A stretch of DNA of 64,000 bases from Blastocatellia bacterium (GTDB lineage Bacteria; Acidobacteriota; Blastocatellia; RBC074). Both the position numbers and the translations under genes were made by a program. The notes beneath the pieces are model-generated. The model was not told the DNA's origin. It ran no database searches and was given only the letters and a program-made list of their open reading frames with translations. Position 1 is the stretch's first letter. Each line of letters opens with the position of its first letter. The stretch covers positions 67 through 64,066 of the forward strand of contig DAOMFR010000019.1 in the NCBI GenBank assembly GCA_035429885.1, in the 5' to 3' direction. Below, one piece after another: positions 15,701-45,484 of the stretch.

Positions 15701-16337
15701 ATACCAGATGAATCGTAGCAGTTGTGCTCGGCAATCCGGATTCTTCCAGGCAAGCAAAGGTCACCTGGATTTTTGACCGAGGATCATTAGGACTGTCGTT
15801 TGGTTGTTCCGGCGGACCGTCTGATGCGAGTCCCAATCGTCTGGCCAGATCGGGAAGCTCACCAACGCGCCCAATGACCAACGCCTTGTTCCTAAGAGAT
15901 TCAAGCGGCTCGTTTTCGATATCCTCTAGCGCGCCTCTCACTTCCGGGAAAGGGGCCAACCCCGGCGGCCCGATCATTTCCAAAGATTCAACGACAATCT
16001 GCCCGTTGGTCCTGATCTTCAATTGGCAATCGAATTGAAGAACCGGCTTTGCCCCGGTTTTGCGCAGCAAACAACGGATTAGGCAATTGATCCGAATCTC
16101 TTTGCGATTGCTGCTGATTCTCACCTGTTCGCTGCCGTCTTCGTTTTGGGGCAGCACATCAAGAATCAGCAAGGGCTGACCTGACGTATTGACGTCAAAA
16201 AGCACAATGCGGTCAAACCCGACCAAGGGCGCATTTGTCGGACTTTCTTGCGCCCGCTTGTTCACAAGATTCAATTCCAGTTTGAGTTCCAAAGCTCCGG
16301 AGAGTGACTGGCGGTAAGCGCGTAGGATCGTTGGCAT
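9798..16337 (-). CDS. Giant hypothetical protein, 2179 aa, with a central ~500-aa amphipathic helical region and a C-terminal Gly/hydrophobic beta-rich module
   Basis: Uninterrupted 6.5-kb ORF with an AGGAG SD (16346-16350) upstream of the ATG at 16337. Residues ~1197-1700 are nearly free of Pro and Gly and are rich in charged residues, Gln and Ala. Residues ~1962-2140 show alternating hydrophobic strands with GGGG/GGG turns. No catalytic or secretion motif was recognised. Confidence 0.85.
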   Translation of the reverse strand: MPTILRAYRQSLSGALELKLELNLVNKRAQESPTNAPLVGFDRIVLFDVNTSGQPLLILDVLPQNEDGSEQVRISSNRKEIRINCLIRCLLRKTGAKPVLQFDCQLKIRTNGQIVVESLEMIGPPGLAPFPEVRGALEDIENEPLESLRNKALVIGRVGELPDLARRLGLASDGPPEQPNDSPNDPRSKIQVTFACLEESGLPSTTATIHLVFSRRLSLHPGVDHKVLSPSPDIRVSRCSGENEWQEDARLNICKAQTEALNLDDENLAPLTIVQRQPRNRNTTQYDQLPLGQWVVQLEGIPHTSVLQLWNNSIARPYLHALHMIQDGRPVSFMPVWMFTAGEDLLQDPPRAERENVPGGTPPEPPLAAPRWTLMAKMTDGSRDLVFDDNKFDLHSDKFRAGGIGLRVRSLYPSLSEFATKAILPGFLSQVGEPLRLTYRVVSTQFKNGKPDELLIEKESLPFSFQTEHLPGNSDEQISRVGALDLVFPERPAKQARLADLQLAADSLLRVCFRKAALGDLYSAEVLTVNIKGRLALFDLVPGGQDDLPGEEFVSADVLGSCDTVTLTAEEEFEAGLERQFRRRRPLLIPFPSHLANALLKSSAEQSALDQTRKPQFMLDFEERTEAEQSQTLSMRLLEYGSGSSQLRGQQRLISLDAQPFLVALVEAPPFVGSAQEGIREIGNWSATADEGASWELIGSSEGFNLFLPPQGLGEAMEKWKLTGKHEDVPENAPIDFRFSPLAKLNLKPSFFKQRFAEAPWNLRRILGFPGQRAPGASIVNARFELFYGLACQVTYPFLRLAELDSKLGQIPGRLSRDLKWKTSASSRQLEVYKEFRRAWAELYSRYLSRLSVLEAYDANQPANLIVTEGVNYELRNTAKLRYPISTKLVPENDPRRASSPPDGLVGGVTWGFESANIYDQLLSEPKSFDGSQLANPFFSSLGGWGNQKAVFNGGLTTIYANVAMGRTYFYSIERIGRIGAFWNLAKHVIIYERTVAPTEQFKDKQEHHLGRPLLRKVREFVELLQPVRKYPEFGAEAISRGFVTGDEFKSRVINVDSDWGSDIPNEGWQVPLWNVQASQEKPNVYPKPQILLEVAAEGEGGGVINVELQEPEKLVFFTRTVDDTQGEHGVEPKDRANTDKWPAVRNVDFPDQPVPVKPNIPAYDPASLDRPLPDAQTIEPGYEQFTFAVAPASQQINLMAERTAEALNVALRNVTMVRARLRTVEEFTEGAQRNGVIAAREGVAKLKRITEQTEEILQTILSKLPKDGNVTQAAVTELTKTIDELIAKHNSSDGLKGNFNALINQTVGDKKLSDLFRGQNVLCGVLNNATDAAIDFAQDRVIKLFADIEADLHKSIDRLSQATGNLKDNVIGAINEYGRRIEDLFTIVNTGLEELMRQAETGYQAALDFKTQAEREINAVINIADKLTTEGSARARQEIEELRRRLQALLRKLESAARSGTETKLAGLIEKVRSNIASLGQKIDVQLGEIDKKLQQGATNVKTELEAFRSNLSTAFVQLENDLKNLRTEIQAALSQAQAEVNKPRQVIKGIQAKLVAAVNQAQATPAALRQAVSDVVNQAESDFRQAIVDAKAKVREITCNVLVAKLLDEASEFGNVLNNLLGGGNVADHFLEKLKAQLTASIGKPFAELRGDIERVFDDIRFRLAPFADRVNQALGEFAGLADETLHQIGDTTLRLLRAFGDAPRVPMLDFNRLRLAYYFDELKRHVDLTPVTALFNRLGDDLKGFGLRFPVANLLDRVVPDALENFDFSNLFPDFAGLKLEKLFSGLKFPLLPKLPGIGNGENVKVTHGVDTQARRAWVKATINVPLTDKATIFSFGPVELKLAKATFTSEAMITAELGSAPRLKVQGQIKGDWELIILGTSVVTFRETTLTFNDQGKIRFDISTDKIEMAGALQFLTDLLKKFLPSSGDDLPPIRLIIIDGKPAGVETVIDLPLPPVQLGAFGISGLVMGAGFRLLLRPVSTGIEFALGVALSFGKKEDPFTLTIFILGGGGWFDTRLTYYPLNNRLLGDITIGITASASLAIALGPIKGSVSITFGIYADFHIDTGGGSAFAITLMLLLKGEVEVLSIVSVSISLLLEAQYSSDGSLVGRGTLKVRIKICWCFTFKFSKTVTYTFKKGSGSGSQAAIASSFALELAAAGDEFDLAAAEYLAMFE

Positions 16338-24165: not shown

Positions 24166-25851
24166 TTACCCGATTTTGATGCCGATGCTTTCCAGAAACT
24201 TGGTCGGTTTTTCTCCACCGATCAGCGCGAAAATGTAATCGTTCTGGAGTCTTGCTGTTTCTTCAGCGGTTTTCGGGTCGCGTTCGCGGGCGCTCATCAG
24301 AGCGACTTCAGTCGGCGTAACTTCTTTGATGGTTTGTCCGAAATACGCCGTGATTTTTCCTTCGTCAATGCAATCGTAGACCAGCATTTTGTTGCCGAGC
24401 TTTAAATCGCTTTTGAGATTGCTGCGGATAATCAGCGAGACCGTGTTGTCACGCCAACCAGTGATTTGCGTGCCGTCATCGGAACGATAGGCGGCCAGAT
24501 CCACGGCGGCTTCAATGGCGGAATTGCCTGCGCCGACAACCACGATGTGTTTGCCGCTGTAATCGTTCGGATCCGTCAGTTTGTATTTGACCTTGTCGTC
24601 TTCAAAGGCAGGGGTCTGTTTAACCTTGGGAATGTATTTCTGGCCGCAATTGTGACAGAAGCGGTTATCGCTCAATCGCTTTTCGCCGCATTTGTTACAG
24701 AACGCAGGCATGATCATTTCCGTGGCGGTGACTACAATCTTGGAATCTTCGCCGGGCACGCCCAATTTCATCGGAGTTCCGCGATTGCCGATGGCCAAAA
24801 TTACACGACGAACGCTGTACTGCATTTTGCGTTTGGTTTTGTCCTGATCGGTTTCGACGATGAAGCTGTCGCCCACAGGTTTGACGCTTTTGCAGCTCTC
24901 GTATTCGTTGATGGTCAGGCCGTTGGTGCGAATCGTTTCCATCCAGGAACCAATCATCACTTCTTTGGTGGCGCCTGCGCCGGACAAATTGATTCCGCCA
25001 TTGACGGGTTTTTCCACCGGATTGAAATACACATATTTGCCGGCTTGATAAGTTTGCTGGATGGTGCCGACGACTTGATCCTGTTCGATGGCGATGTATT
25101 TCAACCCGCGTTGTTTGGCCAGCGCTGTCGCGGACAAGCCCGCCGGGCCAATGCCAACGATGGCGACGTCGTAATCGCAATCGCCGTTTTTCCCTGCGTG
25201 CTTCAAATCTTCGACAATGCAATCAACCACTGCGCCGCCTTCGTTAATGGCATTTTTGATCAGTGGAACCCCGGACACATCTCCGATCAGGTACACGCCA
25301 GGCACGTTGGTCAGGAATTGCTGGTCGCGCTTGGGAACCTTGCGTTCGGGAATCTGTTTGGTGGTATTGATGACGATGCAGGATTTCGGCACGGTCGGGC
25401 ATTCGACCTGACAACTGGTGTCTTCGGTGCATTGTTCGATGGCAATCGGAGTGGCTTTGCCGTTGACGATGGCCAGCACGTCATGCGGGCAGGCATCCAC
25501 GCAAGCATGGCAGCCAATGCATGTCGCCGTGTTGATGACCGGGTGAGGATACGGCGGGCCGTCCGGATCAAGCGCCGCTCCGAGCGATTGCGGCACCACA
25601 ACGGTTTTGGCTTTTGTGTCCGAAGGTTGCATTTCCGCTTCGGCCATAGCTTCGATGACTCGCTTGCGTTCAAAAAACGTGTCTGTCGCGACCAACGCTA
25701 ATCCGACAACTCCCGCAAACAGAATCAATCCCAGCCAGCCCATCGGCGGCACGGCTCCGAAACTGACGGTAAAGCGCGAAACAAACGCAGCCACCAGCAC
25801 CCCTGCCAACAAAAACAATGTAATGACGAGTTGCGATCTTTTCATAGCCAA
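24166..25851 (-). CDS. Membrane-anchored ferredoxin-flavoprotein (2 TM, 4Fe-4S ferredoxin domain, FAD/NAD(P)-binding pyridine nucleotide-disulfide oxidoreductase-like, inserted zinc ribbon)
   Basis: Two N-terminal hydrophobic helices. CIGCHACVDACP plus CTEDTSCQVECP. Dinucleotide folds DVAIVGIGPAGL and HIVVVGAGNSAIE. A CNKCG...CHNCG ribbon sits between them. Confidence 0.75.
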   Translation of the reverse strand: MAMKRSQLVITLFLLAGVLVAAFVSRFTVSFGAVPPMGWLGLILFAGVVGLALVATDTFFERKRVIEAMAEAEMQPSDTKAKTVVVPQSLGAALDPDGPPYPHPVINTATCIGCHACVDACPHDVLAIVNGKATPIAIEQCTEDTSCQVECPTVPKSCIVINTTKQIPERKVPKRDQQFLTNVPGVYLIGDVSGVPLIKNAINEGGAVVDCIVEDLKHAGKNGDCDYDVAIVGIGPAGLSATALAKQRGLKYIAIEQDQVVGTIQQTYQAGKYVYFNPVEKPVNGGINLSGAGATKEVMIGSWMETIRTNGLTINEYESCKSVKPVGDSFIVETDQDKTKRKMQYSVRRVILAIGNRGTPMKLGVPGEDSKIVVTATEMIMPAFCNKCGEKRLSDNRFCHNCGQKYIPKVKQTPAFEDDKVKYKLTDPNDYSGKHIVVVGAGNSAIEAAVDLAAYRSDDGTQITGWRDNTVSLIIRSNLKSDLKLGNKMLVYDCIDEGKITAYFGQTIKEVTPTEVALMSARERDPKTAEETARLQNDYIFALIGGEKPTKFLESIGIKIG

Positions 25852-25860: not shown

Positions 25861-26763
25861 TTAGTTGAAAAACGGAAACAGGATTTTCAGCTCAGCCTTG
25901 TCCGGCCTGCGCCCGTATTCGCAGATTTCAAACGCTTCGGCGTATTGCACTTTTGCGGCGCGATCTTTGCCATACCAATCTTCCAGGTTTTTGCGGTATT
26001 TGTCGGCAACGTTTTTCTGGCGATCCACGAAGCGTTGGCGAACAACTGCCCAGCGTTCTTTCTGCTTCGCGGGGTCTGTTGTCAGCAACTCTTGGTAACC
26101 GTTCGCGCCGCCTTCATAAAACTGCGACACCATGCCGAGCAATCCATCCAGTTTCTTTTCCATCACGGAATCAACATCCACCACCACGTCGGCCTGAAAT
26201 GGATTCGGTTTTTCAAAGCGGTCGGAAAAATACATAAACACGGGATTGTTCGTCAGATGCGGAACGTCCGGCGCGTAATTCGGAACCGTGACCATGTACG
26301 CCGCGTCTTGCACCAAAACTCCGGCGTAACGGTGATCGGGATGATAATCGTTGGGACGGTGGCTAATGACGATATCGGCTTTCCATTGGCGGATCAGTTT
26401 GGTGATGGCTTTGCGATTTTCCAGCGTCGGCAGCAATTCGCCATCGTGGTTATCCAGAATTTCCACAGTCGTGCCTAGAATCTTGGCGGCGCGTTCGACT
26501 TCGACTTTGCGGCGTCGAGCCAGCGGGCCACCCGCTTCGCTAAAATGCCCAATGTCGCCATTAGTGACGGCAACCAGTTTGACAGCGTGGCCTTTGGCCG
26601 CCCACAACGCCGCCGTTCCCGAAACTCCAATTTCCGCATCATCCGGGTGTGCGCCGAAACAGATGATTCTCAGTTGACGTTGCGCGGAATTGGCGGGAAG
26701 CAGGCTGTAAGCAGTCGCCAACAGACAATAGGTGGCGAGTAATAAGCAAAGTTTGCGAATCAT
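25861..26763 (-). CDS. PIG-L/LmbE family deacetylase with a signal peptide
   Basis: AHPDDAEIG motif and TNGD..H. I prefer the ATG at 26763 (MIRKLCLLLATYCLLA, GGAG 9-12 nt upstream) over the longer ORF-track start at 26868. Confidence 0.75.
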   Translation of the reverse strand: MIRKLCLLLATYCLLATAYSLLPANSAQRQLRIICFGAHPDDAEIGVSGTAALWAAKGHAVKLVAVTNGDIGHFSEAGGPLARRRKVEVERAAKILGTTVEILDNHDGELLPTLENRKAITKLIRQWKADIVISHRPNDYHPDHRYAGVLVQDAAYMVTVPNYAPDVPHLTNNPVFMYFSDRFEKPNPFQADVVVDVDSVMEKKLDGLLGMVSQFYEGGANGYQELLTTDPAKQKERWAVVRQRFVDRQKNVADKYRKNLEDWYGKDRAAKVQYAEAFEICEYGRRPDKAELKILFPFFN

Positions 26764-26900
26764 GGTTTTTCTCCACGGAAAGTATCGGGGCCGAATCCAT
26801 TTGCCCCTGTTTTTCGAATCAATTGAGATCGGTCGTGCTTCCCACAAATCGTGGTTTACGACATTCAATCTCTCAGTCCCTGCATCCTGCTATTTCTTCA

Positions 26901-28391
26901 TCATTTTTCCATCCGCCGCAAACTGGCGCGGAGTTCTTTTTCTTCGCCGTGCTGGGCGTGGCAAGAGACGCATTTGGGGCCACCAGCTTGAGTATTAGTC
27001 ATGAATTGTCTGCCGCGATCAGCAAAGAAGGCTTTGGCACTTTCATTCTGGGCGTTGGCCGTAGCCGGATCGGTTCCGTGGCACGCCGCGCAGGATTCAC
27101 GCACGCCTTGAGTTAAGGCTGTGTCTTCAAACCCCGCCGTATGGCAATCGGTGCAATTGCTGCGACCTTGTTGCCGGCCTGCCAGATGAAGCAGATGGAA
27201 ACTGTCTTTCGTTTTGTATAGCGCCGGTGTTCCGGGAAGCTCTCTGCGCGACCATTCAGCTTGAGAAATGGAAAACACGATTTCCGACCAGCGGCCATTT
27301 ACGACAGGATAGCCAAATGAAGCTCCGCCGTGAGGGGATTTCAACTCTTTGCCAGCGAAACTATTGCCATCGCGATGGCATCCCGTGCAAGCGGTATTGG
27401 CGACCAAAGCCGGGCGAAAATCTCGTCCCAAATGTTCCGTGTGGCAAGCGGTGCAAGTCAGCCCAGCTTTCATGTGTTTGTCGGATACTTCTGAATGAAA
27501 CGCCGAAGTCGAGTGGCAGGACGCGCAGTTTTGATTGAGCGACGCTTTGACCGAATGACACGTTGTGCAAGCTGACGAAGCAGGAATTCGAGCGATTCCT
27601 GGCGAAATCGAAAAGTCCTTTCGGGCATGTGCTGCCGAGAGCGCGCCAGGGGAATAAGCATCCTTGAAGATAAAAATCGCGGCCACCGACAGAACCGTCA
27701 CGATCAGCGTTGCCCATCCAAACAACGCGCGTGGCCAGGGGCGTTGCAAATCGCGAGTTGGAACCCAATTGAACTGTGCTCTGCCCAGACGTTTTTTGAC
27801 CTTCGGTTTGAGCGGGGAATCCGTCGCCAGCTTTCCGTCTTCGCGTTTGCGCTTGTCCCAAAAGATTTTCAGCGCCTGGGCATCCACAGGCTTCAACATT
27901 CCAGTCAGCATTCCGGTGCCGGACAAACGCCGAGTGCCTTTGGGCGTGACTTTGTCGCGTTGCAACTTGGCCAGAATTCCCGGATCAATGCGCACGGTCT
28001 TGCCTTGATCCGGAGGCAACTGCATCCCGGTTCCGGTGCTTGGCGCGGACGCCTCAACGGGCAAAGGCTTGACGCTCATTTCCACGTCGATCATCAGCCC
28101 ATCGCCTACATATCGCGGGAACAAAAAGAACGGGCCAATCTGAACAACGTCGCCGTCAGCGATCGGCGTTTGATCCACCAATTCGCCATTCAGCGTCGTG
28201 CCATTGGCTTCCGACAAGTTGAAAATCCAGTAATCGCCATTGAGCTCTTTGATTCCTGCGTGAGTGCGCGACACCGACGGATGGTTCAACACCAGGTCGC
28301 TGCCCGCCAATCGGCCAATCGTCAGCCCTTCGCTTTCTACCAGCGCAGGATCAAGACTAAGGTCTTTTCGGATGATGACGAACTTGTTCAT
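26901..28391 (-). CDS. FHA domain - single TM - heptaheme c-type cytochrome fusion protein
   Basis: N-terminal FHA (LTIGRLAGSDLVLNHPSVSRTHAGI...NGTTLNGELV...GDVVQIG). TM helix ALFGWATLIVTVLSVAAIFIF is preceded by basic residues. The C-terminal half has seven CxxCH motifs (CTTCH, CASCH, CTACH, CTGCH, CTDCH, CAACH, CVSCH). Confidence 0.8.
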   Translation of the reverse strand: MNKFVIIRKDLSLDPALVESEGLTIGRLAGSDLVLNHPSVSRTHAGIKELNGDYWIFNLSEANGTTLNGELVDQTPIADGDVVQIGPFFLFPRYVGDGLMIDVEMSVKPLPVEASAPSTGTGMQLPPDQGKTVRIDPGILAKLQRDKVTPKGTRRLSGTGMLTGMLKPVDAQALKIFWDKRKREDGKLATDSPLKPKVKKRLGRAQFNWVPTRDLQRPWPRALFGWATLIVTVLSVAAIFIFKDAYSPGALSAAHARKDFSISPGIARIPASSACTTCHSVKASLNQNCASCHSTSAFHSEVSDKHMKAGLTCTACHTEHLGRDFRPALVANTACTGCHRDGNSFAGKELKSPHGGASFGYPVVNGRWSEIVFSISQAEWSRRELPGTPALYKTKDSFHLLHLAGRQQGRSNCTDCHTAGFEDTALTQGVRESCAACHGTDPATANAQNESAKAFFADRGRQFMTNTQAGGPKCVSCHAQHGEEKELRASLRRMEK

Positions 28392-28405: not shown

Positions 28406-30844
28406 CTACCTCGCCAGAAAATAAATCACTTGAATGATGTGGACGATCATCAATGCCAGCATCAGCGACGTGACCAGCACGTGCGGAGCCAGCCAGAGTT
28501 TCAGCAATTGATGGAGATAGATTAAGGCGTCCACTCTGCGTATGGTTGCAGCCATCTCAATGCCTTTGAGTAGTCGTTCGCGTTCGCCGTCAGTCATGCC
28601 TTGGCCAATGGCCGCGAATTCAGTTTTGATATTTGCCAGCATTTCATCCAGCGACTCTCGTCTCAAATATTGGCGCAGCAAAAAACTCAGGGAAATGGTG
28701 CGCGGAACGACTTGCTTCTGGATCGTCAGCCGGACGTTGGGAGTGACTTTGGCCATCAGTTCGCCAAGCTCGTGACTCAACTCCTCGCGGCGGGCGGTCA
28801 GGTCTTCGATCAACAGCGGCTGGCCTTCGATTCGAGTCAGCATTCGCGGAGCTATGAAGTAAATCAAAATGCCGAACAAGCCGGTTAAGATCACAAGGTC
28901 AAACGAGACCATTAACGCCGTAGTCAGCAGGCCGCCGGAATCCGAGCCTCCGTGCAGCAGCAATACGATTCCGGCGATGACGCCCAGATAGCTATGAGCC
29001 AACATCCAGTATCGCAAGGCTCCGGCGCGTTTACGGTAAATCTGCCGTCGAATAGGATAAGCCATCACTCCCGCGATGCCGATCAGCCCAATAGCGCCAG
29101 TCAACCAACGCATGTCCAGCCACGATCCGATCAACGGAGTTTCCAATCCATAACGCATCATTCCGGCCAGCGTCAGCAATGTCAGGATCAACGTGGCAAA
29201 CAAGCCAAAGGCATGCATCAATCGTTTGCCGAAATCTTTATGCGAGGTATGGCGGGCGACGACGTGCGTGGAATCGCGAAAGATCGTGCCTTCAGCTTCT
29301 TTGATTTCAGAAAAGTAAATGTGCGGATCCACTCTCAGCAACGCGCCGGTCGGACAGTTTTCTTCGCAACTGTATGCCTTGCGTTTGGTGCCCGGAGGGT
29401 TAAGCGGCGTGTTTTGGCAGAGATTGCACTTTACAGCCAGCAAATCTTCCGTTTGTTCAACGGCCGGTGGCAGCGGGGATGGTTTCAGGTCGAACCAGCC
29501 TTGGCTGGTTAAGGCCGGAGCCGGTTTTCGACTCACCATCGAAATTGCATTGTACGGGCATTGCGTCGCGCAATCGCCACAACCGATGCAGCTTTTGGGA
29601 TCAATGTCCACTTGACCACCTGGGAAGCGGCCAATTGCTCCCGTCGGGCAACCTGTCAAACATTCAGGGTCCTGACAGTGCATGCAAACCGAAGGCGAAA
29701 GCAAACTTTGGAAACTGGATTTCGGTTCTACTTTGACCGGGCGTTCAACGTGTATGCCTCTGCGCAGCAATCGCGATTGCCCATGCACCTGGTGACACGC
29801 CATGGAGCAATTGCCGCAACGCACACACATCTCCATATCCATCACCAGCAAATTTGTGCCATCAACCAGCCCGGTTTCGATCAACGATTCTTGAGCAATG
29901 GCGACCGGCAACGGTTGCCGGCCTTCGTTGGGATTGTCCGGCGCGGCCATTCCGGTAAACGCCAGCAACAGGATTTCACGCAATTCCGGATGTTTGCGCA
30001 GATCGGCCAACGAAATTTCCAGCACTTCGGCGCGCCCCATCAATGTGCAAGTCTGTTCCCAATTCCCATCGCGAGTGATCGCTTCGACGCCGAAACTATG
30101 CGACGGGCCGAAATAAGCTTCCGTGGCTTTGGCGTTCCAATTTCGCGGCTTGATTTCTTCGGGTGTCAGTTGGCGCGTGACGGTTCGCGGAGTGACTTTG
30201 GCCCAGCCGGATTTCAGCACGAACAGATTTTTCATCGGATCGCCCGCGCGAAAGAGCACGTGGTTTTTGCCAAAGACTTTGAATTGCGAGATGGCTTCAA
30301 GCTGGCTAACAGCTTCTTTGCTGAGTTGAGTTGCCGCGGCGATGTCCTGAATGGTGGTTGCGCGTCCGTTGCGACGATACGTGGAATCCAGCACTTCGCC
30401 GAATTTGGGAAGTTTGCGCAATAACCGAAGCGCAGGCCGCTGAATTTCCAACACCTGAACCGGTTTGTCTTTGGGCGCGCGAATGGTTGCTGACCGCTGG
30501 ACGCCGGCCAGCACAGACATTTCGCCGAACTGCACTCCGGCGGGAATCTCTGCCACCTTGTTTTGGCCATTGTCGAAGAGCACATCGGCGGTACCGCTGA
30601 CGACGATGAAAAATGAATTGCCTCCCCATTCGCCTTCGCGGACAATTTCTTCGCCCGGCATATAGGTCAGCAAGCGAACGTATGGGCCGACTTTCTTGCC
30701 GTTGTAATTGCGTCCATAAACAATCACTTCCAGGTCAAGTTCGTAATCGTAATGGCCGTCGTGCTGAGATGTCAGATCGGCGATGGCGCCAATGCTTTCA
30801 ATTGCAGCCAGCACGTCTTTGTGCTTAAGAGTCTCTTCAGGCAT
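28406..30844 (-). CDS. cNMP-binding (x2) / four-cluster 4Fe-4S ferredoxin / 5-TM putative di-heme b membrane protein
   Basis: First cNMP domain has an intact phosphate-binding cassette (FGEMSVLAGVQRSATIRA). The second is degenerate. Four Cys groups follow a DmsB/NrfC-like pattern (CVRCGNCSMAC, CMHCQDPECLTGCP, CIGCGDCATQCP, CNLCQ...CEENCP). The C-terminal part has five hydrophobic helices with H617-x13-H631 and H788-x13-H802. Confidence 0.75.
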   Translation of the reverse strand: MPEETLKHKDVLAAIESIGAIADLTSQHDGHYDYELDLEVIVYGRNYNGKKVGPYVRLLTYMPGEEIVREGEWGGNSFFIVVSGTADVLFDNGQNKVAEIPAGVQFGEMSVLAGVQRSATIRAPKDKPVQVLEIQRPALRLLRKLPKFGEVLDSTYRRNGRATTIQDIAAATQLSKEAVSQLEAISQFKVFGKNHVLFRAGDPMKNLFVLKSGWAKVTPRTVTRQLTPEEIKPRNWNAKATEAYFGPSHSFGVEAITRDGNWEQTCTLMGRAEVLEISLADLRKHPELREILLLAFTGMAAPDNPNEGRQPLPVAIAQESLIETGLVDGTNLLVMDMEMCVRCGNCSMACHQVHGQSRLLRRGIHVERPVKVEPKSSFQSLLSPSVCMHCQDPECLTGCPTGAIGRFPGGQVDIDPKSCIGCGDCATQCPYNAISMVSRKPAPALTSQGWFDLKPSPLPPAVEQTEDLLAVKCNLCQNTPLNPPGTKRKAYSCEENCPTGALLRVDPHIYFSEIKEAEGTIFRDSTHVVARHTSHKDFGKRLMHAFGLFATLILTLLTLAGMMRYGLETPLIGSWLDMRWLTGAIGLIGIAGVMAYPIRRQIYRKRAGALRYWMLAHSYLGVIAGIVLLLHGGSDSGGLLTTALMVSFDLVILTGLFGILIYFIAPRMLTRIEGQPLLIEDLTARREELSHELGELMAKVTPNVRLTIQKQVVPRTISLSFLLRQYLRRESLDEMLANIKTEFAAIGQGMTDGERERLLKGIEMAATIRRVDALIYLHQLLKLWLAPHVLVTSLMLALMIVHIIQVIYFLAR

Positions 30845-35682: not shown

Positions 35683-38600
35683 TTATCGAATCACATTCGC
35701 GTGTGTGCCAACGATGCTGCGAGCGATGGGGAAATCGCCGAGTTCGGCTTGAAGCGGCTGTTTATTTCGGTGGCGAGGCGCGAATTGCACAACAATGACT
35801 TCGGCTTCGCCGGGGCGCAGGCTGTGTCCGCCGGGCAAGGCCAGCATGACTCCCAAGCGGCCTTGCGCTGTTTCGTTCTGGTTGAGAATGAGTGTTGCCT
35901 GCCGAGCCTGGCGTCCGGTTCTTGCGGAAACAAAACGCCATTTGTTCGCATCAAAATTCAAACTAAAACTCAGCGCGTTTTCGGTTCCGTGAGCGTTCAG
36001 CCGGATGGAGATCGCGCCAGGAAGGGGTTTTACCGTCAACGGTTCATTTGTTTCGACGGTTTGCTGACGGCTGGCTTTCAATCCGCAATTTGCAACCCCC
36101 AATCCGCAATCGCCAGAAAGCCCTGCGACAGCAACGCTCGGTCCGCCCGCCACAGTCGCGGCTTCCAGTCCTGCAACGTAACGTCCGGTTTGCACCCAAT
36201 CAGCCAGTGTCAGGCGTCCATCGCCAAGGGTGTCGCGGGGAGCGCAGTCGGCGCGCTGAAATTCACTGCTATTGGCTGGGGAATCCAACCCGGCGACGAA
36301 TCGCCCTACTTGCACCCAGTCGGTGATTGTCACTGAGCCGTTGTTGTTTCCAAAAACACGGGGCGCAACATCGGCTTCATAACCTTGCCCAAGTCGCACA
36401 CTGCCGGAAACAAATTGTGCCGTGATTGGGGAACCGCTACCGGAAACCGCGCGAGGAATTGGCAAATCGCCAAAGTTGATTGTGGCCGTCGTGGCCGAAG
36501 CCGACGGAACAATATTGAATGTGATAACGGCGATTTGCCTTAAACCGGCCTCGTACTTCTTTCCGGAAGGTTGCGTGATCGTGAGTCCAAAAACACCTTG
36601 AGCAACACGTGTGGCGTCAGCGAAAAAATCTGCTCCAATGGAATCCACGCCGATGGAAGTTCGCGGGTCGGCAAGCAGTTTCGGATCAAAACTCAGGCTG
36701 AAATTGATGGCGGTCTCGTCGCCTTTGGAATCCAGCGTGATGGGCACGTTGACCGTTTGTCCGATAGAACCGGCGGAACTGACGACACTGATTGCGCGCG
36801 CGGCGACATTGACGGTCATGGAAGCGCTGGCTCCACCGATGTTGGCGGGTAAAGTCGCCGTAACTGTCGCAGGGCCGCCGACCGCCACACCGCTCAAGTG
36901 GAATGTCGCAGCTGCTGTTCCAGCTGGAATCACGACACTCGATGGAATCGTCAGCACAGATGTATTGGTGGACGATAGCGATACTGTCACGCTATTGGAT
37001 TGCGGGTAACTAAGCGTCACCGTTACGGGGCTTAGTGCTCCGACAGTTGCTGTCAAAGGAGACGGCGACAGCGAAATTCCCGGGAAGGACGTGAAGTTGA
37101 GTGTTTGTGCGTCCACGCAACCGGGTTTGCTCAGAATAATTGGAGCCGTGCGCGCTCCGGCAGGAACTGTGGTCGTGATGGACGTGTTGCTGTTGATCGT
37201 GAAGGAAGCAGGCACGTCGCCGAATTTGACGGCGGTCACCCCCGTGAAGCCGGAGCCTGTGATGGTGACTTGATTGCCCACGGAGCCGCTGCTTGCGCTT
37301 AGGCTGGTGACATTCAGGCAACTGGTCTGGCAGCAGGTGAACCCTGTCAGTTGCAAGGAAAACGCGCGCACGCTGCCGCTGTCTCCCGTAAAGGCGTCCA
37401 CTACAGTGAGTGTCCAGGTGCCGTTCGGGTTTTCTCCGTCGAAGGTGGACAGCGCGTTCGATGGTTTTAGAGTGCCGGTGTAAGGAGGCCCTTGCGGAGG
37501 CGGGCCGTTGGAGGCAATCGAGCCGATAGAAATTGCATTTGCTGCGTCATCATCCAGCAACATTTGGCAGAAGTTTTTGCCGCTGTTGCCGCTGCCGCCG
37601 GGGCGACTGATGATCGTCACGGTTGTTCCTGCGGGCGATGTCAGCCGAAACACCAAATCCCCAACCCAGGTGTGATCCACGCCGACGCCTGTGGCTCCGG
37701 GGCTGGACGAACACTGTGTGCCGTCAATGCGGAAGTTCAAGTCGGCGATGGTGCTGGGAAATCCGCTGACGACGATCGGTAAACTGACGCCGCGAGAATC
37801 TCCGTCGGGGATTTTTGTCGCTTCGCCCGCATAACTGAAGGTTTGCGTTGTCGTGCCGATTGCGCCGAGCGTGAAGTTGAATGTCACGATGCCCAAGTCC
37901 TGATCGCCATCTTTCAAACTCAGATTGATTGGCAAGTTTCCGCCGCAGGCTCCGCTGGCTGTGAATGTGAATTGACGCGCGACGGCTGCTGAACCGGGAG
38001 CCATTGCGCCGTAGCTTCTGGTTTGGTCGGCGGTGATGACGTTGCTGGAAGAGAGCAGTGTCGCCGTCAAATTCTGTGTGGTAGTGGAACCGTTGTTGCC
38101 CAGCAAAAGACTGACCGTTACGGTTTCGCCCGGATCAATGACTTTGTTCGCAGGCAAGCAGCTTTCGGTCACCAGCGAAGACGTGGCGCCAATAATCAGT
38201 TTGGCTGGACGCACCAGCCGCGCGCGAATGCCATAATTGCCAAACGATCCCAGTGAATCAATCAACTCGAAGGTTAAGCCGTCCAGCGAACGATAGGAAC
38301 GCGTTTTGGATTTCGTCGTGTCCAGCGCAAAAGGAAATACGTTTTCTGTCTGGGTCAGTTTTAGGCCCACGACGAAATCTCCGGACGTCACCGTGAGTGG
38401 AGAAATGTTGACCACATTGAACGCGCCGACCTGTTGCACTTGTGCCGCTGTCGTCTGAAACACGAGCCCGTCAATATTCGAATCGCCGTCAGCGTTTGAC
38501 GCGACAATCACCGAATACTGATCGCCTACGCGCACGCTGGTGTTATCCGGGAAGTAAATCGAAACGGCGTTGATCGTGGCCGGGTAAAACGCCGGAGTCA

Positions 38601-41412
38601 GCCGGTTGACGCGGTACGAAGTGCCGCCGGTTGTGACTCCTGCGGCGGTTTCAAAGCTTCCATCGTCAACAGACAGTTCAAAAGGCGCGGCGTCTTGCGT
38701 CACGGTGAAGGCTTGTCCGCCGACAGTGATGGTTCCGGTGCGTTGAATCGGTTGTGTGTTGTTGGCGACTGTGAAGTTGACGGTGCCGTTTCCCTGGCTA
38801 CCACTTGTGAATAGGACGCTGATAAATGAATCGCTGACTGTTGGTGTCCAAGCGCATTCCGAAGCCGAAGCCACCGCGAAGTTGCCTGAGCCTCCGTTGG
38901 CAGGGAAGTTTTTTGTCGCCGGAGTCAGCGTGTAAGAGCATCCGTTTCCCGCGCTTTGCGAAATGGTGACCAGTTGTCCGGCGACAGTGATTGTTCCGGT
39001 GCGCGCCAGGCCCGAAGTCGGCGCAACTGTAAAGCTGACGGTTCCGGTTCCGCTGGCGACTGCGCCGGAGTTAATGGTGATGAAGCTGGAGCCACTAATT
39101 GCTGTCCATCCGCAAGCAGCAGTTGTTTCCACGCTGATGGTTCCGACTCCGCCAGAAGCCGTGAAGCTGGAATTGTTCGCCGTCACGGTATAAGCGCAAT
39201 TGCCAACGGTCAGAATGTTGGCGCCGGTAGCCGTTTGGCCGTCAGGGTTTGTGACAGTGACGGTTTTGGTTCCGGCAGCGGCGTTGACCGTCGAAAGGTT
39301 CAACTGAATCGTTGTCGGATTGACGTAACTGACATTGTTGACGGTGACTCCGCCGCTGACGGATGCCCGCAGGCGGCAACTGTAGGAGTCTCCGGGGTCG
39401 AAAAATCCTGCTCCGTCAGCCGAGGTTAAACCAGTGAGCGTGACGTTGATCGAGCTCAAGCCTGTCGCGATCGAAGGCGGATTCGTTGCAGCAGGCGTGG
39501 CTGGCGGAGGTGCCGGAATTTTGGCTACGCGTAACCCATAGGAGTTGGCGGCGTCCGCGAATTGCTGCACGGTCCACAACGTCATGTCGTCGCAAGGGTC
39601 AACACTGGTGAACGAATAATCTCCCCAGCGGCGGCGAGCGGCCAGATTTCCGCTATCGCTGGACGGGTTGTACGGCGCAGGGCTGGCTGTGATCAACGAC
39701 GGAGCTTGCAGTGCGCCCAGCGGATCGGTTGCCAGCCGATAGGCAATCGCGGCATTCACATATTCATTCGTTCCGGCGGTGCTGCTTCCAATCAAAGCGT
39801 TTCCCTGACCGGAAACGGCCAGCGACGGAATGAAGTAATTTCGTTCGTCTTCGATGTTGGTTGTCGTGGAGGTGAATAACGTTCCGGCTTGGCGAAGCGT
39901 CGGCGCGTTAGTGGCAATGTCCGTGATTTCGTACCAGCGAACTCCATTGCGTGTGCGCGGAGCATCAATTGTGCCTTCGTTATTGACGGAAATGTTGTGC
40001 GTGGTCCAGATGCTGCCGCCGCGAAGTTGGGCCATTGCCAAACGATCATCAATCGCATCCAGCCTACCGTTCACTCCATTAATGTTGCCGCGATGGCGAA
40101 CCGTAATCGGTTGAGACGTGGTCAGCACATTCAGGTAAATGTTGGCCGACATCACCGGAACGCCACCTGGATTCGACACTCTGCGCAAAACCAATCGACC
40201 CAGACTGCCCGCATCCGTGCCAAGAAAATAACCTTCGGTGGAACTGGCGGCAGGATTGTCCACGCCCTGGGGCGTGAAGATGCCGTTTTTCAATGATGTA
40301 CCGGTCGAATCAATCAAGTTGCGAAAGGCTGAGGCAACAATCTGGCCGCCGCTCAGGATCGAAGATTTGCGAATGACCAACGCCGTCGTATTGCTGAACG
40401 CCCGATTGCAAAATTGATTCAATCCTACATACAGCGCGTTGGCGTCAATTCCCAGCGTCGGGAAGTCTGCAAAACATCCGTTGTCGCCCGCCGGAGACAC
40501 TTCGTTATGCGCGAACTGATAAAACGTCCAGCTCGTCGCCGTGTTGATCGTTGATCCGTCGCTGACCGCCAGCAGAATCCGATTGTTCGATGAAGCCGTG
40601 TTGACCAGCAGAATGAACCAACGTCCGGAGAGCCTGTCGTAGCGAACACGCGGGTCCGTTGTGATGAATCCTGCGCGAACGGAGTTGAAGAAGGAATCAA
40701 TGTCGGCATCCAGTTGTCCAACTGCGCCTGTGCTTTTGTTGAAGACTCGTATGCGGCCATTCACCGCCAGCAAAAATTGGGTCGGTCCGGCGGCTCCCAT
40801 CGAATCCGGCGGAAAGGCGCTGGTTTCCGCCAGGGTCGCTGCCGTGAAGTTGAGCGTTGGCAAAGGAGCGAAAGAGGGAAGTAGAGACGGAGAGACGGAG
40901 AGATTGGGTGACTGTTGCCCCAGGCGTTTGGTCTCTCTGCCCCATAATTCCTCAATCCCTCCGCCCCTCTGTCCCTCTGTTCCAGCAGGCGGCCATTGCG
41001 CACCCGGCAGGGCATCCGGGTTTTGCGGCAACTTGTCGCGATTGGGTTGTTCGAGCTCTTCTTCACGGTTGCGCTTGGCACGGCGTGGAGCCTTGGTCTC
41101 ACCGGAACGAAGCGATTGTTCGCGCGTCATGATCTCCGCCGTGGTTTCGGTGATGCCTGCTTCGCCAACCCACAACACGCCGGTGATTGATCCATCCGGG
41201 TTGATTTGTTGTTGTTGAGAATGAATGTGGCGAGCAGGCGGCGTTTTAATTTTGGATTTTGGCTTGGCTGATGAATTCGACCGCTCTGCACGACGTTGCG
41301 CCAGCCCGGCATTCAGCCATTGGCCCAACACCAAAGCCACTGTAACGAAAATCATCAACGATAAGAAGCGACGGAAAGATTTGAAGACGAATGCAAATCT
41401 CGAAACGGGCAT
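35683..41412 (-). CDS. Giant secreted/cell-surface protein (1909 aa): BACON-like, proprotein-convertase P-domain, IPT/TIG, cohesin-like and dockerin-like modules
   Basis: AGGAG SD and an N-terminal signal-anchor. Two Cys-bracketed beta domains (CAYTVT...CGWTA..., CSYTLTP...CAWTP...RTGTITVGGQAFTVTQ). P-domain signature (DHTWVGDLVFRLTSPAGT...NGTWTLTVVDAFTGDSG). IPT-like segments. The C-terminal module is paralogous to that of the 555-aa PA14 protein. Confidence 0.8.
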   Translation of the reverse strand: MPVSRFAFVFKSFRRFLSLMIFVTVALVLGQWLNAGLAQRRAERSNSSAKPKSKIKTPPARHIHSQQQQINPDGSITGVLWVGEAGITETTAEIMTREQSLRSGETKAPRRAKRNREEELEQPNRDKLPQNPDALPGAQWPPAGTEGQRGGGIEELWGRETKRLGQQSPNLSVSPSLLPSFAPLPTLNFTAATLAETSAFPPDSMGAAGPTQFLLAVNGRIRVFNKSTGAVGQLDADIDSFFNSVRAGFITTDPRVRYDRLSGRWFILLVNTASSNNRILLAVSDGSTINTATSWTFYQFAHNEVSPAGDNGCFADFPTLGIDANALYVGLNQFCNRAFSNTTALVIRKSSILSGGQIVASAFRNLIDSTGTSLKNGIFTPQGVDNPAASSTEGYFLGTDAGSLGRLVLRRVSNPGGVPVMSANIYLNVLTTSQPITVRHRGNINGVNGRLDAIDDRLAMAQLRGGSIWTTHNISVNNEGTIDAPRTRNGVRWYEITDIATNAPTLRQAGTLFTSTTTNIEDERNYFIPSLAVSGQGNALIGSSTAGTNEYVNAAIAYRLATDPLGALQAPSLITASPAPYNPSSDSGNLAARRRWGDYSFTSVDPCDDMTLWTVQQFADAANSYGLRVAKIPAPPPATPAATNPPSIATGLSSINVTLTGLTSADGAGFFDPGDSYSCRLRASVSGGVTVNNVSYVNPTTIQLNLSTVNAAAGTKTVTVTNPDGQTATGANILTVGNCAYTVTANNSSFTASGGVGTISVETTAACGWTAISGSSFITINSGAVASGTGTVSFTVAPTSGLARTGTITVAGQLVTISQSAGNGCSYTLTPATKNFPANGGSGNFAVASASECAWTPTVSDSFISVLFTSGSQGNGTVNFTVANNTQPIQRTGTITVGGQAFTVTQDAAPFELSVDDGSFETAAGVTTGGTSYRVNRLTPAFYPATINAVSIYFPDNTSVRVGDQYSVIVASNADGDSNIDGLVFQTTAAQVQQVGAFNVVNISPLTVTSGDFVVGLKLTQTENVFPFALDTTKSKTRSYRSLDGLTFELIDSLGSFGNYGIRARLVRPAKLIIGATSSLVTESCLPANKVIDPGETVTVSLLLGNNGSTTTQNLTATLLSSSNVITADQTRSYGAMAPGSAAVARQFTFTASGACGGNLPINLSLKDGDQDLGIVTFNFTLGAIGTTTQTFSYAGEATKIPDGDSRGVSLPIVVSGFPSTIADLNFRIDGTQCSSSPGATGVGVDHTWVGDLVFRLTSPAGTTVTIISRPGGSGNSGKNFCQMLLDDDAANAISIGSIASNGPPPQGPPYTGTLKPSNALSTFDGENPNGTWTLTVVDAFTGDSGSVRAFSLQLTGFTCCQTSCLNVTSLSASSGSVGNQVTITGSGFTGVTAVKFGDVPASFTINSNTSITTTVPAGARTAPIILSKPGCVDAQTLNFTSFPGISLSPSPLTATVGALSPVTVTLSYPQSNSVTVSLSSTNTSVLTIPSSVVIPAGTAAATFHLSGVAVGGPATVTATLPANIGGASASMTVNVAARAISVVSSAGSIGQTVNVPITLDSKGDETAINFSLSFDPKLLADPRTSIGVDSIGADFFADATRVAQGVFGLTITQPSGKKYEAGLRQIAVITFNIVPSASATTATINFGDLPIPRAVSGSGSPITAQFVSGSVRLGQGYEADVAPRVFGNNNGSVTITDWVQVGRFVAGLDSPANSSEFQRADCAPRDTLGDGRLTLADWVQTGRYVAGLEAATVAGGPSVAVAGLSGDCGLGVANCGLKASRQQTVETNEPLTVKPLPGAISIRLNAHGTENALSFSLNFDANKWRFVSARTGRQARQATLILNQNETAQGRLGVMLALPGGHSLRPGEAEVIVVQFAPRHRNKQPLQAELGDFPIARSIVGTHANVIR
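36079..36113. repeat. In-frame short repeat (two copies of CAATCCGCAAT) inside the 1909-aa gene
   Basis: caatccgcaatttgcaacccccaatccgcaatcgc is translated on the minus strand as GDCGLGVANCGL. It sits at the same linker position as the repeat in the PA14 gene. Confidence 0.75.
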
Positions 41413-42659: not shown

Positions 42660-44015
42660 ATGCCAATTGCAACTCCAGTAACTCCGGAGGCCGAGCCGCT
42701 GCATCGGGTCTCCGCTGATCAAATACTGCACCGTCTGCGCGAAATGTTCGGCGAAGATCGCGCTCGCGTTGTCACTGGCGACAACTTCAAAGTCGTTGAA
42801 GAAACGGAACGCGTCGTCGCTTTTCCGCACACCCTGGAAGAACTGACGGAAATCCTGAAGCTGGCAGAACGCGAACGCTGGCGAGTGATTCCGGCTGGCG
42901 CGGGAACCTGGCTGACCGTGGGAAATCGTCCCGTACAGTTTCAGCTTGTCGTTTCGACGGAGAAGATGAATCGCGTGCTGGAATACGAACCCGCCGATCT
43001 GACTGCGACGGTTCAGGCTGGCTGTTCGCTGGCAGAGTTCAACCGGCAAGCTGCCCAGCATCGGCAATTCATTCCGCTGGATCCGTTCGGTGATGCGAAC
43101 TCCACGCTCGGAGGAATCATCGCAACGGCCAGCAGCGGGCCAATGCGTTGCGGATATGGAACTCCCCGTGATTGGCTCATCGGCATTCGCGTCGTTCATC
43201 CGAACGGAGGCGTGACCAAAGCTGGCGGCAAAGTTGTTAAAAACGTGGCTGGTTACGATTTGTGCAAGTTGTACACTGGCAGCTTCGGTTCGCTGGCCGT
43301 CTTTGCCGAGATGAGTTTCAAGCTGCGCGCCTTGCCGTCTGCGGAAAAAACGCTGGTGTTTTACGCTGCGGATGCCGAAAGTCTGTGCTGGCTGGCGCTG
43401 CGGATCAGCGATTCCGATGTGCAGCCTGCGGCGATGGAATTGATTTCTCCGTCTGCCGATCTAAGTTTGCCGCTTGACGCTCGACGCTTTGCCCTGGTGC
43501 TTCGGTTTCTGAACGAAACCGAAACCGTGGAATTTCAATTGAACGAAGCCGCTCGTATCGGTCACGATTTCGAACGAACGGTGATGAGCGATGCTGACGC
43601 GGAAGCGTTTTGGACGGCTTACCACGAAACAGAAACTGATGACCTGTGGGCATACAATCTGCGGTTGAGCGCGTTGCCAGCCGATTTGAACGATGTGGTG
43701 AAAGATGTCGGCCAGTTTTTGCCCCAGTCAGTCTGGCGCGCGCACGCAGGCAATGGCGTGTTGCGCGTGCTGGCCAAAGAAGATTTGTTTGAAGGATTGC
43801 AAACCAAACGCCGCCCGAAATTCATTTCCGAACTTCGACAATTAACCCAGGCGCGCGGCGGTCAATTGGTGATGCTCAACGCGCCGCAAATGCTCAAGGA
43901 TCAACTGGACACCTGGGGCGAAGTCGGCTCGATTTCCAGATTGATGCGCGAATTAAAAAACCGGTTTGATCCTGACGCGCAACTCAGTCCGGGAAGATTT
44001 ATCGGGGGCATTTGA
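42660..44015 (+). CDS. glcE: FAD-binding PCMH-type oxidoreductase, GlcE-like
   Basis: FAD-binding domain motifs (VIPAGAGTW, STLGGIIATASSGP, VKNVAGYDL). A GlcF-like gene lies in the same cluster. Confidence 0.7.
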   Translation: MPIATPVTPEAEPLHRVSADQILHRLREMFGEDRARVVTGDNFKVVEETERVVAFPHTLEELTEILKLAERERWRVIPAGAGTWLTVGNRPVQFQLVVSTEKMNRVLEYEPADLTATVQAGCSLAEFNRQAAQHRQFIPLDPFGDANSTLGGIIATASSGPMRCGYGTPRDWLIGIRVVHPNGGVTKAGGKVVKNVAGYDLCKLYTGSFGSLAVFAEMSFKLRALPSAEKTLVFYAADAESLCWLALRISDSDVQPAAMELISPSADLSLPLDARRFALVLRFLNETETVEFQLNEAARIGHDFERTVMSDADAEAFWTAYHETETDDLWAYNLRLSALPADLNDVVKDVGQFLPQSVWRAHAGNGVLRVLAKEDLFEGLQTKRRPKFISELRQLTQARGGQLVMLNAPQMLKDQLDTWGEVGSISRLMRELKNRFDPDAQLSPGRFIGGI

Positions 44016-44055
44016 TTCATTTTTTGAGCATTCGCGACAGAAGAGTAGATAACCA

Positions 44056-45240: not shown

Positions 45241-45283
45241 GATGTTTATCTACTTCCAGCATCGCCTGGATTAGGGAGAAGTT

Positions 45284-45457
45284 ATGCCGAATCCATTTTG
45301 GGTTTCCGCCACCGCGGCGACGGTCAAAACGTTATCCAAGAAATGCCCGCATTGCGGTAAGCGCGCTTCGTATCCGCGCAAAGAACAAGGGCAGTTTTAC
45401 ACCTGCAAGTACTGTGGTCACCGATTCAAGGAGTATGATTCGTCGGGAAAAAAATGA
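45284..45457 (+). CDS. Small zinc-ribbon protein (57 aa), absent from the ORF track
   Basis: ATG at 45284 preceded by GGGAGA, TGA at 45455-45457. Two CxxC pairs (CPHCG, CKYCG) lie 16 residues apart. It ends 27 nt upstream of the glcF-like gene. Confidence 0.55.
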   Translation: MPNPFWVSATAATVKTLSKKCPHCGKRASYPRKEQGQFYTCKYCGHRFKEYDSSGKK

Positions 45458-45484
45458 TTCCGGCCAAGCATCCATTCAAATTTT

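Follow-up and report, generated by a model that had tools for sequence, protein, structure and literature searches.

The window analysed here, a 64,000-nt stretch of DNA from a Blastocatellia bacterium (assembly GCA_035429885.1, contig DAOMFR010000019.1, positions 67 to 64,066 of the forward strand), contains a set of four genes on its minus strand, here named A to D, of which gene A potentially encodes a membrane electron-transfer protein. Judged from its sequence, the last 275 or so residues of the gene A product form a five-helix membrane domain that is a member of no defined family. This domain is probably a di-haem b wire in a chain leading from NAD(P)H through FAD, iron-sulfur (Fe-S) clusters and haem b to a multihaem cytochrome c.

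Four invariant histidines in the gene A membrane domain

According to the preliminary description of this region, two histidine pairs, H617/H631 and H788/H802, lie on transmembrane (TM) helices TM3 and TM5 of the gene A protein with 13 residues between the members of each pair, and both pairs were reproduced by translating positions 28406..30844 of the minus strand. TM3 reads LAHSYLGVIAGIVLLLHG, with H617 encoded at 28994-28996 and H631 at 28952-28954, and TM5 reads APHVLVTSLMLALMIVHI, with H788 encoded at 28481-28483 and H802 at 28439-28441. The 13 intervening residues have a mean Kyte-Doolittle hydropathy of 2.42 in the H617/H631 pair and 2.80 in the H788/H802 pair.

An alignment of homologues, which the same description had named as a check, found the four histidines invariant across the detectable family, in 120 close and 60 distant relatives. 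The close relatives came from a word-indexed search with residues 531-812 of gene A as the query, which returned 513 sequences; in the 120 that were listed (51-92% identity) all four histidines are present, the sole exception being one sequence with a frameshifted C-terminus. The distant relatives came from an exhaustive profile search over 1.84 billion cluster representatives at 50% identity, in which 1,784 proteins passed E <= 1e-3 and 325 of them passed E <= 1e-10. Sixty of the representatives listed span both ligand helices and are 22-53% identical to the query. All 60 have the four histidines with both spacings exactly 13, a distance of 141-174 residues between the second and third histidine, and 7-13 residues between the last histidine and the protein end. 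As the last histidine always lies so close to the end, a sixth TM helix (TM6) is absent family-wide.

When the 278-residue domain, which contains eight histidines, was shuffled 200,000 times, two or more H-x13-H pairs arose in 1.3% of the shuffles, with no TM placement required. Together with the invariance over 180 sequences, this test ruled out a chance origin of the two pairs, and it is the conservation of the four histidines that removes chance as an explanation. Among the other histidines, H778 is variable in the family alignment and H544 is conserved in the ferredoxin-fused subfamily only.

The residues conserved family-wide are G583, R599, W613, H617, G621, H631, G655, G658, P666, W784, H788 and H802. 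A tryptophan sits one turn ahead of each inner histidine (W613 before H617, W784 before H788). The small residue G621 lies between the two histidines of TM3, G655 and G658 are on TM4, which bears no ligand histidine, and R599 is at the cytoplasmic end of TM2. TM4 also carries the pattern T641-x13-G655. This set of conserved Trp, Gly and Arg residues matches what a predicted haem pocket would need.

The two ligand helices also resemble each other. When the family sub-profiles of TM3 and TM5 were compared by hhalign, they aligned with a probability of 90% (E 1.4e-6), G-lr-W--aHiy-G…illH being paired with lLr-Wl--Hv…viHI, and a TM4 sub-profile used as a control aligned with neither of them. The ligand helices thus form an internal repeat, L-[RK]-x-W-x3-H-x13-H, and this shared motif suggests an internal duplication of the ligand helix.

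Topology and predicted structure of the membrane domain

Five TM segments were delimited by hydropathy (residues 541-564, 580-598, 612-632, 637-670 and 780-812). Because the N-terminal cyclic-nucleotide-binding (cNMP-binding) and Fe-S domains are not preceded by a signal peptide, the N-terminus of the gene A protein is expected to be cytoplasmic; with five TM helices, this places the C-terminus in the periplasm and gives TM3 and TM5 the same direction, from the cytoplasm outward. Assigned to the inside are the Arg/Lys-rich TM2-TM3 loop and the charged TM4-TM5 insert, and to the outside the short loops, including GGSDSGG after H631. The charged stretches cited earlier for this orientation, KDFGKR before TM1 (536-541) and RRQIYRKR between TM2 and TM3 (599-606), were confirmed by translation, and the orientation itself, with the N-terminus inside and TM3 and TM5 both directed outward, is borne out by the domain order, the loop charge, the number of helices and the homologue P0132. 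In this protein of 1,277 residues a domain with seven CxxCH motifs, itself placed after a TM helix like that of gene B, is fused upstream of the TM domain, and between the seven-haem domain and TM1 there is one more TM helix (949-975) together with a short linker. The extra helix returns the chain to the cytoplasm before TM1, which supports the proposed topology.

With TM3 and TM5 parallel, the inner level of the membrane would hold H617 and H788, and the outer level H631 and H802. A helix rises about 21 Å over 14 residues, and the two haems are usually this far apart in cytochrome b and NOX.

The segment between TM4 and TM5 has no hydrophobic stretch and is all helix in two AlphaFold models. 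The helical cytoplasmic insert of about 130 residues that had been noted at this place is therefore real; it measures about 115 residues and is a conserved part of the domain, its length being kept across the family and its sequence variable. The first AlphaFold2 model covered residues 320-812 and was built on a shallow alignment; its TM part was good and its ferredoxin part was poor (mean predicted local distance difference test score, pLDDT, 62.6). The second model covered residues 535-812 and was built on an alignment of 55 sequences, including some of 17-28% identity. It reached a pLDDT of 91 and a predicted template modelling score of 0.80, and it contains TM1 to TM4, five short cytoplasmic helices and a 60-residue helix that leads out of the insert directly into TM5.

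Cytoplasmic domains of the gene A protein

The Pfam model PF00027 (cNMP-binding domain) matched the gene A protein in two stretches with 79.6 bits, the cut-off being 27.5. The phosphate-binding cassette pattern G-E…R-[ST]-A occurs in domain 1 as FGEMSVLAGVQRSATIRA. In domain 2 inspection of the translation showed that the cassette arginine is replaced (…WEQTCTLMGRA), and this second domain is possibly degenerate.

The ferredoxin part contains 16 cysteines in four groups, 340/343/346/350 (CxxCxxCxxxC), 387/390/395/399 (CxxCx4CxxxC), 419/422/425/429 (CxxCxxCxxxC) and 473/476/493/497 (CxxCx16CxxxC), and it matched the Pfam model Fer4_11 with 33.8 bits (cut-off 26.2). The nearest NCBIfam models are DsrO, ArrB, AegA, NrfC, DmsB and TtrB (E 1e-18 to 1e-12; 1e-18 to 1e-14 for DsrO, ArrB, NrfC and DmsB). 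Every score was below the equivalog cut-off, and the gene A ferredoxin is thus an orthologue of none of these proteins. From the cysteine pattern and these similarities, it is of the beta-subunit type of the complex iron-sulfur molybdoenzymes (CISM), with four clusters. In formate dehydrogenase-N and nitrate reductase the same type of ferredoxin module feeds a di-haem membrane anchor. The fusion of the membrane domain to a polyferredoxin, as headlined in the preliminary description, stands in this four-cluster form; that headline had left out the two N-terminal cNMP-binding domains.

The operon and its conservation

Genes A, B, C and D follow each other on one strand with intergenic gaps of 14, 32 and 9 nt (Table 1). 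The flavoprotein part of the gene D product is similar to YpdA and thioredoxin reductase (TrxR), with FAD and NAD(P)H sites and a zinc-ribbon insert. To follow the gene order, 81 loci were compared, 80 of them from reference genomes (metagenome-assembled genomes, MAGs, of Blastocatellia or other Acidobacteriota) and one from a metagenome. A homologue of gene B was found downstream of gene A in 80 of the 81 loci, and gene D was present in 65, the remaining loci being short contigs. Gene C was found in only 12 loci, those closest to the window, and is a lineage-specific insertion outside the conserved core.

A bacillithiol link of the PIG-L protein of gene C and the YpdA-like flavoprotein of gene D was considered because the best NCBIfam similarity of gene D, below cut-off, is to the YpdA bacillithiol-disulfide-reductase family. 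As a core feature it was rejected, since PIG-L occurs in the 12 closest loci only and bears a signal peptide; such a thiol link looks lineage-specific. Elsewhere in the window, no cyclase, Ser/Thr kinase or further cytochrome was found beside the operon, and its neighbourhood contains no Rieske gene.

Counted at E <= 1e-3, the family has 1,784 cluster representatives; in reference genomes it occupies at least 505 loci, and every member that could be placed taxonomically belongs to the Acidobacteriota. A near-identical operon was also seen in L002, L003, L005, L008 and other loci from MAGs titled 'uncultured Heliomicrobium sp.', 'Heliobacteriaceae' or 'Clostridia'. These sequences are 86-93% identical to Blastocatellia loci, which indicates that the labels are wrong.

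Fusions and splits in distant relatives

Among distant relatives (22-29% identity in the TM domain), the same parts were found in other combinations. At some loci a single protein of 792-819 residues unites a Pyr_redox domain (4-290), two cNMP-binding domains and Fer4, and is followed by a stand-alone TM domain of 277-281 residues and then by an FHA-multihaem c protein. In a split variant, cNMP-Fer4, TM domain and FHA are encoded by separate genes. At locus L082 a stand-alone TM gene is overlapped by an octahaem c gene, and at one further locus three multihaem c genes precede the TM-domain gene and a gene for a 1,384-residue multi-FHA and Fer4 protein follows it. The cytochrome c-TM fusion P0132 described above is another such variant. 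This joining and splitting of genes is Rosetta-stone evidence for a joint action of the flavoprotein, the Fe-S domains, the TM domain and the multihaem cytochrome.

Several related loci have further neighbours. On the metagenome contig L001 (464-1240 and 5353-7557), a gene for a CHASE2-guanylate/adenylate cyclase and a gene for a class-II phosphodiesterase/Apyc1-like protein of the metallo-beta-lactamase fold adjoin the homologous operon, so that enzymes making and breaking cyclic nucleotides are encoded beside a cNMP-binding electron-transfer protein. P0132 (L096:5638-11834) starts with a 650-residue region of no known type, which is followed by its seven-haem c domain, the extra TM helix and the TM domain. 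Its gene follows immediately on genes for a TIR_2-iSTAND protein and an AAA ATPase, a setting more usual for conflict or signalling systems than for respiration. Downstream of the distant operons in L092 (11116-16834) and L094 (11053-16846) are genes for a 577-residue HbpS-like protein (haem-degrading/haem-binding family), for proteins of 645-702 residues without a Pfam match, and for LVIVD-repeat proteins of more than 1,190 residues, one of which also shows a faint MtrC-like signal. It is possible that these proteins are outer components of the electron path.

Table 1. Coordinates of the operon genes and of the domains and helices of the gene A protein in the window (aa, residues of the encoded protein).
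Feature	Position	Strand	Description	Basis
Gene A	28406..30844	-	812 aa; two cNMP-binding domains, 4x[4Fe-4S] ferredoxin, five-TM putative di-haem domain	Open reading frame (ORF), Pfam, TM family
cNMP-binding domain 1	30425..30667	-	aa 60-140; cassette FGEMSVLAGVQRSATIRA intact	Best PF00027 stretch (Pfam); cassette read from translation
cNMP-binding domain 2	29990..30277	-	about aa 190-285, approximate	Second Pfam stretch; limits by inspection
Four-cluster ferredoxin	29330..29848	-	aa 333-505	Cys positions, Fer4_11, NCBIfam similarities
TM1	29153..29224	-	aa 541-564, inside to outside; H544 within RLMH motif at cytoplasmic start	
TM2	29036..29113	-	aa 578-603, outside to inside; G583 94% conserved, R599 invariant at cytoplasmic end	
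TM3	28949..29017	-	aa 610-632, inside to outside; W613-x3-H617-x3-G621-x9-H631, then Gly-rich periplasmic loop GGSDSGG	
TM4	28847..28930	-	aa 639-666, outside to inside; G655 invariant, G658 95% and P666 92% conserved	
TM4-TM5 insert	28496..28846	-	aa 667-783, cytoplasmic, all-helical; D/E681 the only well-conserved polar residue	
TM5	28412..28495	-	aa 784-811, inside to outside; W784-x3-H788-x13-H802; protein ends 10 aa past H802	
Gene B	26901..28391	-	496 aa; cytoplasmic FHA (24-86), TM helix (221-247), periplasmic domain with seven CxxCH (275-478)	
Gene C	25861..26868	-	PIG-L/LmbE-type deacetylase with N-terminal signal peptide	
Gene D	24166..25851	-	561 aa; two N-terminal TM helices, two-cluster ferredoxin (aa 103-160), flavoprotein	

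Proposed electron path

Taken together, these features suggest the following path, in which we infer haem binding, ligand pairing, the direction of flow and regulation from the sequence signature, the topology and the gene linkage. The gene A TM domain would hold two b-type haems by bis-histidine ligation, an inner haem near the cytoplasmic face between H617 of TM3 and H788 of TM5, and an outer haem near the periplasmic face between H631 and H802, about 20 Å from the first by geometry. The flavoprotein-ferredoxin D would oxidise NAD(P)H and pass the electrons via its FAD to its own Fe-S clusters. From there they would reach the four [4Fe-4S] clusters of A, then the inner and the outer haem, and finally the seven c-type haems of B in the periplasm. 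As in NOX, the redox span and the membrane potential would both favour an outward flow. The TM4-TM5 insert is probably a cytoplasmic docking platform that would hold the last Fe-S cluster near the inner haem, and the cytochrome c probably makes contact at the Gly-rich loop after H631.

A gate on this flow, operated by a cyclic nucleotide and by Ser/Thr phosphorylation, is suggested by the tandem cNMP-binding domains of A and the FHA domain of B; such gating by signals is probable from the identity of the domains. It is a more tentative and rather doubtful idea that the operon is a second-messenger-gated bacterial counterpart of the NADPH oxidases, in which the export of electrons from NAD(P)H would need both a cyclic nucleotide bound to A and a phosphothreonine signal at the FHA domain of B. 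The chain so gated would comprise about 16 cofactors, namely FAD, six Fe-S clusters, two b haems and seven c haems.

Relation to known cytochrome families

Several results weigh against the assignment as a di-haem cytochrome. No Pfam or NCBIfam model reached its threshold on the TM domain of gene A. When the two structural models were compared with the PDB by Foldseek, no solved structure was found at E <= 1e-3; the top matches were the four-helix bundles of the sensors McpS and TorS (TM-score <= 0.37), which we read as helical-bundle noise, and cytochrome b561 appeared at E 4.3 only. A PDB sequence search with three family profiles (A1, A3 and A4) gave nothing except spurious matches of the insert, to coiled-coil, uteroglobin and Nav-linker sequences. 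Comparison by hhalign with E. coli MsrQ, YodB, CybB, FdnI, HyaC and NarI was not significant, with probabilities <= 1.1%, although this is a weak test, as the templates were single sequences (plus a four-paralogue PF01292 alignment, also <= 1.1%). Moreover, no terminal acceptor or reductase is encoded near the operon within the window.

Below threshold, matches to three families recurred in a pattern that is not random. DUF4405 (PF14358) was matched by 20 of 26 diverse stand-alone members (best E 2.3e-4), the matches covering the H-x13-H helix TM5 only (profile positions 35-63 of 66). Ni_hydr_CYTB (PF01292) was matched by 12 of the 26 diverse and 6 of 20 close members, the gene A protein itself scoring 9.6 bits against a cut-off of 30.1. 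Ferric_reduct (PF01794) was matched by three of the 26 (best E 0.0028, 18.1 bits against 28) and, in the Pfam search, not by the gene A protein. Cytochrom_B gave no match at E <= 10 with the family members searched. As these sub-threshold matches are mostly confined to the H-x13-H helix, they could reflect convergence, a further point against the assignment. DUF4405, Ni_hydr_CYTB and Ferric_reduct belong to one Pfam clan of two-haem cytochromes, to which the gene A TM domain could plausibly be remotely homologous. Experiments have shown that DUF4405 binds haem b, and DUF4405, MsrQ and PepSY-like proteins are structurally related cytochromes with four central histidines (PMC11334425).

The TM domain could accordingly be a divergent true member of the ferric-reductase-domain superfamily (NOX/FRE of PF01794, MsrQ, DUF4405, PepSY-like proteins such as FoxB) which has lost TM6 and gained a large loop D, without being a new fold. 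This is possible, if somewhat improbable. In the ferric-reductase domain, the histidine pairs on TM3 and TM5 are spaced 13 and 12-13. The gene A domain shares with the superfamily a predicted cytoplasmic N-terminus, the placing of the ligand pairs on parallel helices TM3 and TM5 and a spacing of about 13, and the proposed path likewise starts at a donor in the cytoplasm and ends at an acceptor outside it. The motif H-x-[YW]-[LI]-G after the first TM3 histidine resembles the ferric-reductase consensus 'HrWlG', and the sub-threshold matches to DUF4405 and Ferric_reduct point the same way, as does the kinship of the four-histidine cytochromes cited above. In NOX the cytoplasmic TM4-TM5 loop contacts the donor domain, and the gene A insert may be likened to it.

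However, the superfamily has a six-helix core, in which TM6 returns the chain to a cytoplasmic dehydrogenase domain or C-terminus, whereas the gene A family has five helices, ends right after TM5 and holds in its TM4-TM5 loop a conserved helical domain of about 115 residues. The match to Ferric_reduct is non-collinear, since TM5 of the query was aligned to the TM3 region of the profile, no match reached the gathering threshold, and the comparison with MsrQ was null. Despite the pLDDT of 91, Foldseek retrieved no NOX, STEAP, DUOX or b561 structure at a meaningful score, and its top 50 for this model contain no NOX or STEAP entry, with the limit that Foldseek is weak on all-helical TM bundles and that the insert dominates the alignment. 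The partners differ as well: the ferric-reductase donor is a C-terminal FNR-like FAD/NADPH domain and its acceptors are O2, Fe3+ or MsrP, whereas in gene A the donor is a fused N-terminal four-cluster ferredoxin and the proposed acceptor a multihaem cytochrome c. The label of a cytochrome b / ferric-reductase-like protein, given to the domain in the preliminary description, therefore holds as a likeness in spacing and topology; as a statement of membership it does not, there being no above-threshold match, no sixth helix and no relative in the PDB.

Comparison with quinone-reactive and other membrane cytochromes

The main rival to a direct wire is a quinone-reactive cytochrome b like FdnI, NarI, HyaC or Geobacter CbcL. 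By way of a Q site in the TM domain, its haems would join the menaquinone pool to the Fe-S domain and/or the multihaem cytochrome c, and the operon would then encode an alternative oxidoreductase of the NAD(P)H:quinone or the quinol:cytochrome c type. We consider this unlikely. Four-cluster ferredoxins are normally paired with quinone-reactive anchors, and FdnH-FdnI of formate dehydrogenase-N resembles the gene A protein in that a CISM-type ferredoxin with four clusters leads to a di-haem b protein with an H-x13-H helix. The best near-threshold signal over several helices also comes from PF01292, the family of FdnI, HyaC and CybB: residues 18-150 (TM1-TM4) of the homologue P0017 align to profile positions 3-125 with 28.1 bits, and the R-x2-H at the start of gene A TM1 resembles the TM1 motif of this family (local hhalign match to HyaC).

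These likenesses do not extend to the ligands. FdnI, HyaC and CybB have four TM helices with single histidines on TM1 and TM2 and a pair on TM4, and FdnI and NarI bind their haems from TM1/TM2/TM4 or TM2/TM5 with other spacings, whereas gene A has five helices, an insert and pairs on TM3 and TM5. Unlike FdnH, the gene A ferredoxin is predicted to be cytoplasmic and is covalently fused to the membrane domain; a molybdoenzyme partner is missing, and the TM domain showed no recognisable quinone-site motif. Some stand-alone TM domains, as at L082, lie beside a multihaem c gene only, with no ferredoxin visible on the contig, which is the layout of a quinol:cytochrome c module, but L082 starts just 226 nt upstream of the cytochrome gene, so that an upstream partner may be cut off. 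Finally, a complete NAD(P)H-FAD-Fe-S donor and a c-haem acceptor, which both co-occur and are fused, need no quinone, and this favours the direct wire.

A role of the four histidines other than haem binding (binding of another metal, a path for protons or ions, or a domain that serves the cNMP/Fe-S module as membrane sensor or anchor) would agree with the missing above-threshold homology to any haem protein and the missing structural neighbour, but it is highly improbable in view of the invariant pairs at i/i+14 on two parallel TM helices, which is the classic bis-histidine di-haem geometry, the small residues on the neighbouring helix, the Trp one turn ahead of each inner histidine, the position of the domain between Fe-S and c-haem carriers both genetically and by fusion, and the fact that the families most often matched below threshold are all haem b proteins (PMC11334425).

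The predicted di-haem wire of gene A is also similar to cytochrome b of the bc1 and b6f complexes in that two parallel helices within a four-helix core each carry one H-x13-H pair and a non-ligand helix has small residues at the level of the haems (T641-x13-G655 in gene A, G-x13-G in helices A and C of cytochrome b). In cytochrome b, however, the ligand helices are the second and fourth and run from the P to the N side, whereas in gene A they are the third and fifth and run from N to P. Gene A further differs in having no Cytochrom_B match, no Rieske or c1 partner and no Qo or Qi motifs.

In its overall plan, in which electrons are exchanged across the membrane between a multihaem cytochrome c of the periplasm, a di-haem b protein in the membrane and an Fe-S protein of the cytoplasm, the proposed system resembles Hmc, Tmc, DsrMKJOP and the Geobacter CbcL/Cbc complexes. 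The membrane subunits of those complexes are of the NarI/HdrE or FdnI type and unrelated to the gene A TM domain, and the cytoplasmic partner of gene A is a flavoprotein-ferredoxin instead of an HdrD/CCG protein. The cNMP-binding and FHA domains of genes A and B have no counterpart in Hmc, Tmc, DsrMKJOP or Cbc.

Other genes in the window

Outside the operon, the window contains three giant ORFs on the minus strand. The first (4119..9761, 1,880 residues) has no Pfam match, the second (9798..16337, 2,179 residues) has only a sub-threshold match to an apolipoprotein-like helical repeat, and the third (35683..41412, 1,909 residues) bears a proprotein-convertase P-domain and is adjoined by genes for a PA14/TIG protein and an S8 subtilase. 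On the plus strand, the region 42660..46882 encodes FAD_binding_4 and Fer4/CCG proteins, similar to the glycolate-oxidase pair GlcD/GlcF, on either side of a Na+/H+ exchanger gene. A signalling cluster at 47049..62525, also on the plus strand, encodes three large histidine kinases with Reg_prop/Y_Y_Y beta-propellers, of which two contain GAF domains, and two phosphatases of the response-regulator-SpoIIE (PP2C) type; nothing was seen that links this cluster to the operon.

Novelty and biological meaning

Bis-histidine di-haem bundles carry electrons across membranes in bc1, NOX, MsrQ, FdnI and NarI, and as a kind the bis-histidine di-haem TM wire is already known. No description of the present domain combination or operon was found in the searchable literature. 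The TM family, its five-helix architecture with an insert, the doubling of the W-x3-H-x13-H motif and the chain from flavoprotein to multihaem c, decorated with cNMP-binding and FHA domains, all appear to be undescribed. The gene A family would thus add to the membrane electron-transfer bundles a large unannotated family with an architecture of its own, in which the predicted membrane wire is tied by fusion and synteny to a full donor side, a full acceptor side, and cNMP-binding and FHA domains. For bacteria there is essentially no known description of a respiratory-type conduit for electrons that cyclic nucleotides or Ser/Thr phosphorylation gate at the post-translational level. The Acidobacteria are numerous in soils, and their physiology is poorly understood. 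A regulated export of electrons, if true, would bear on how these bacteria handle redox stress, metals and humic substances.

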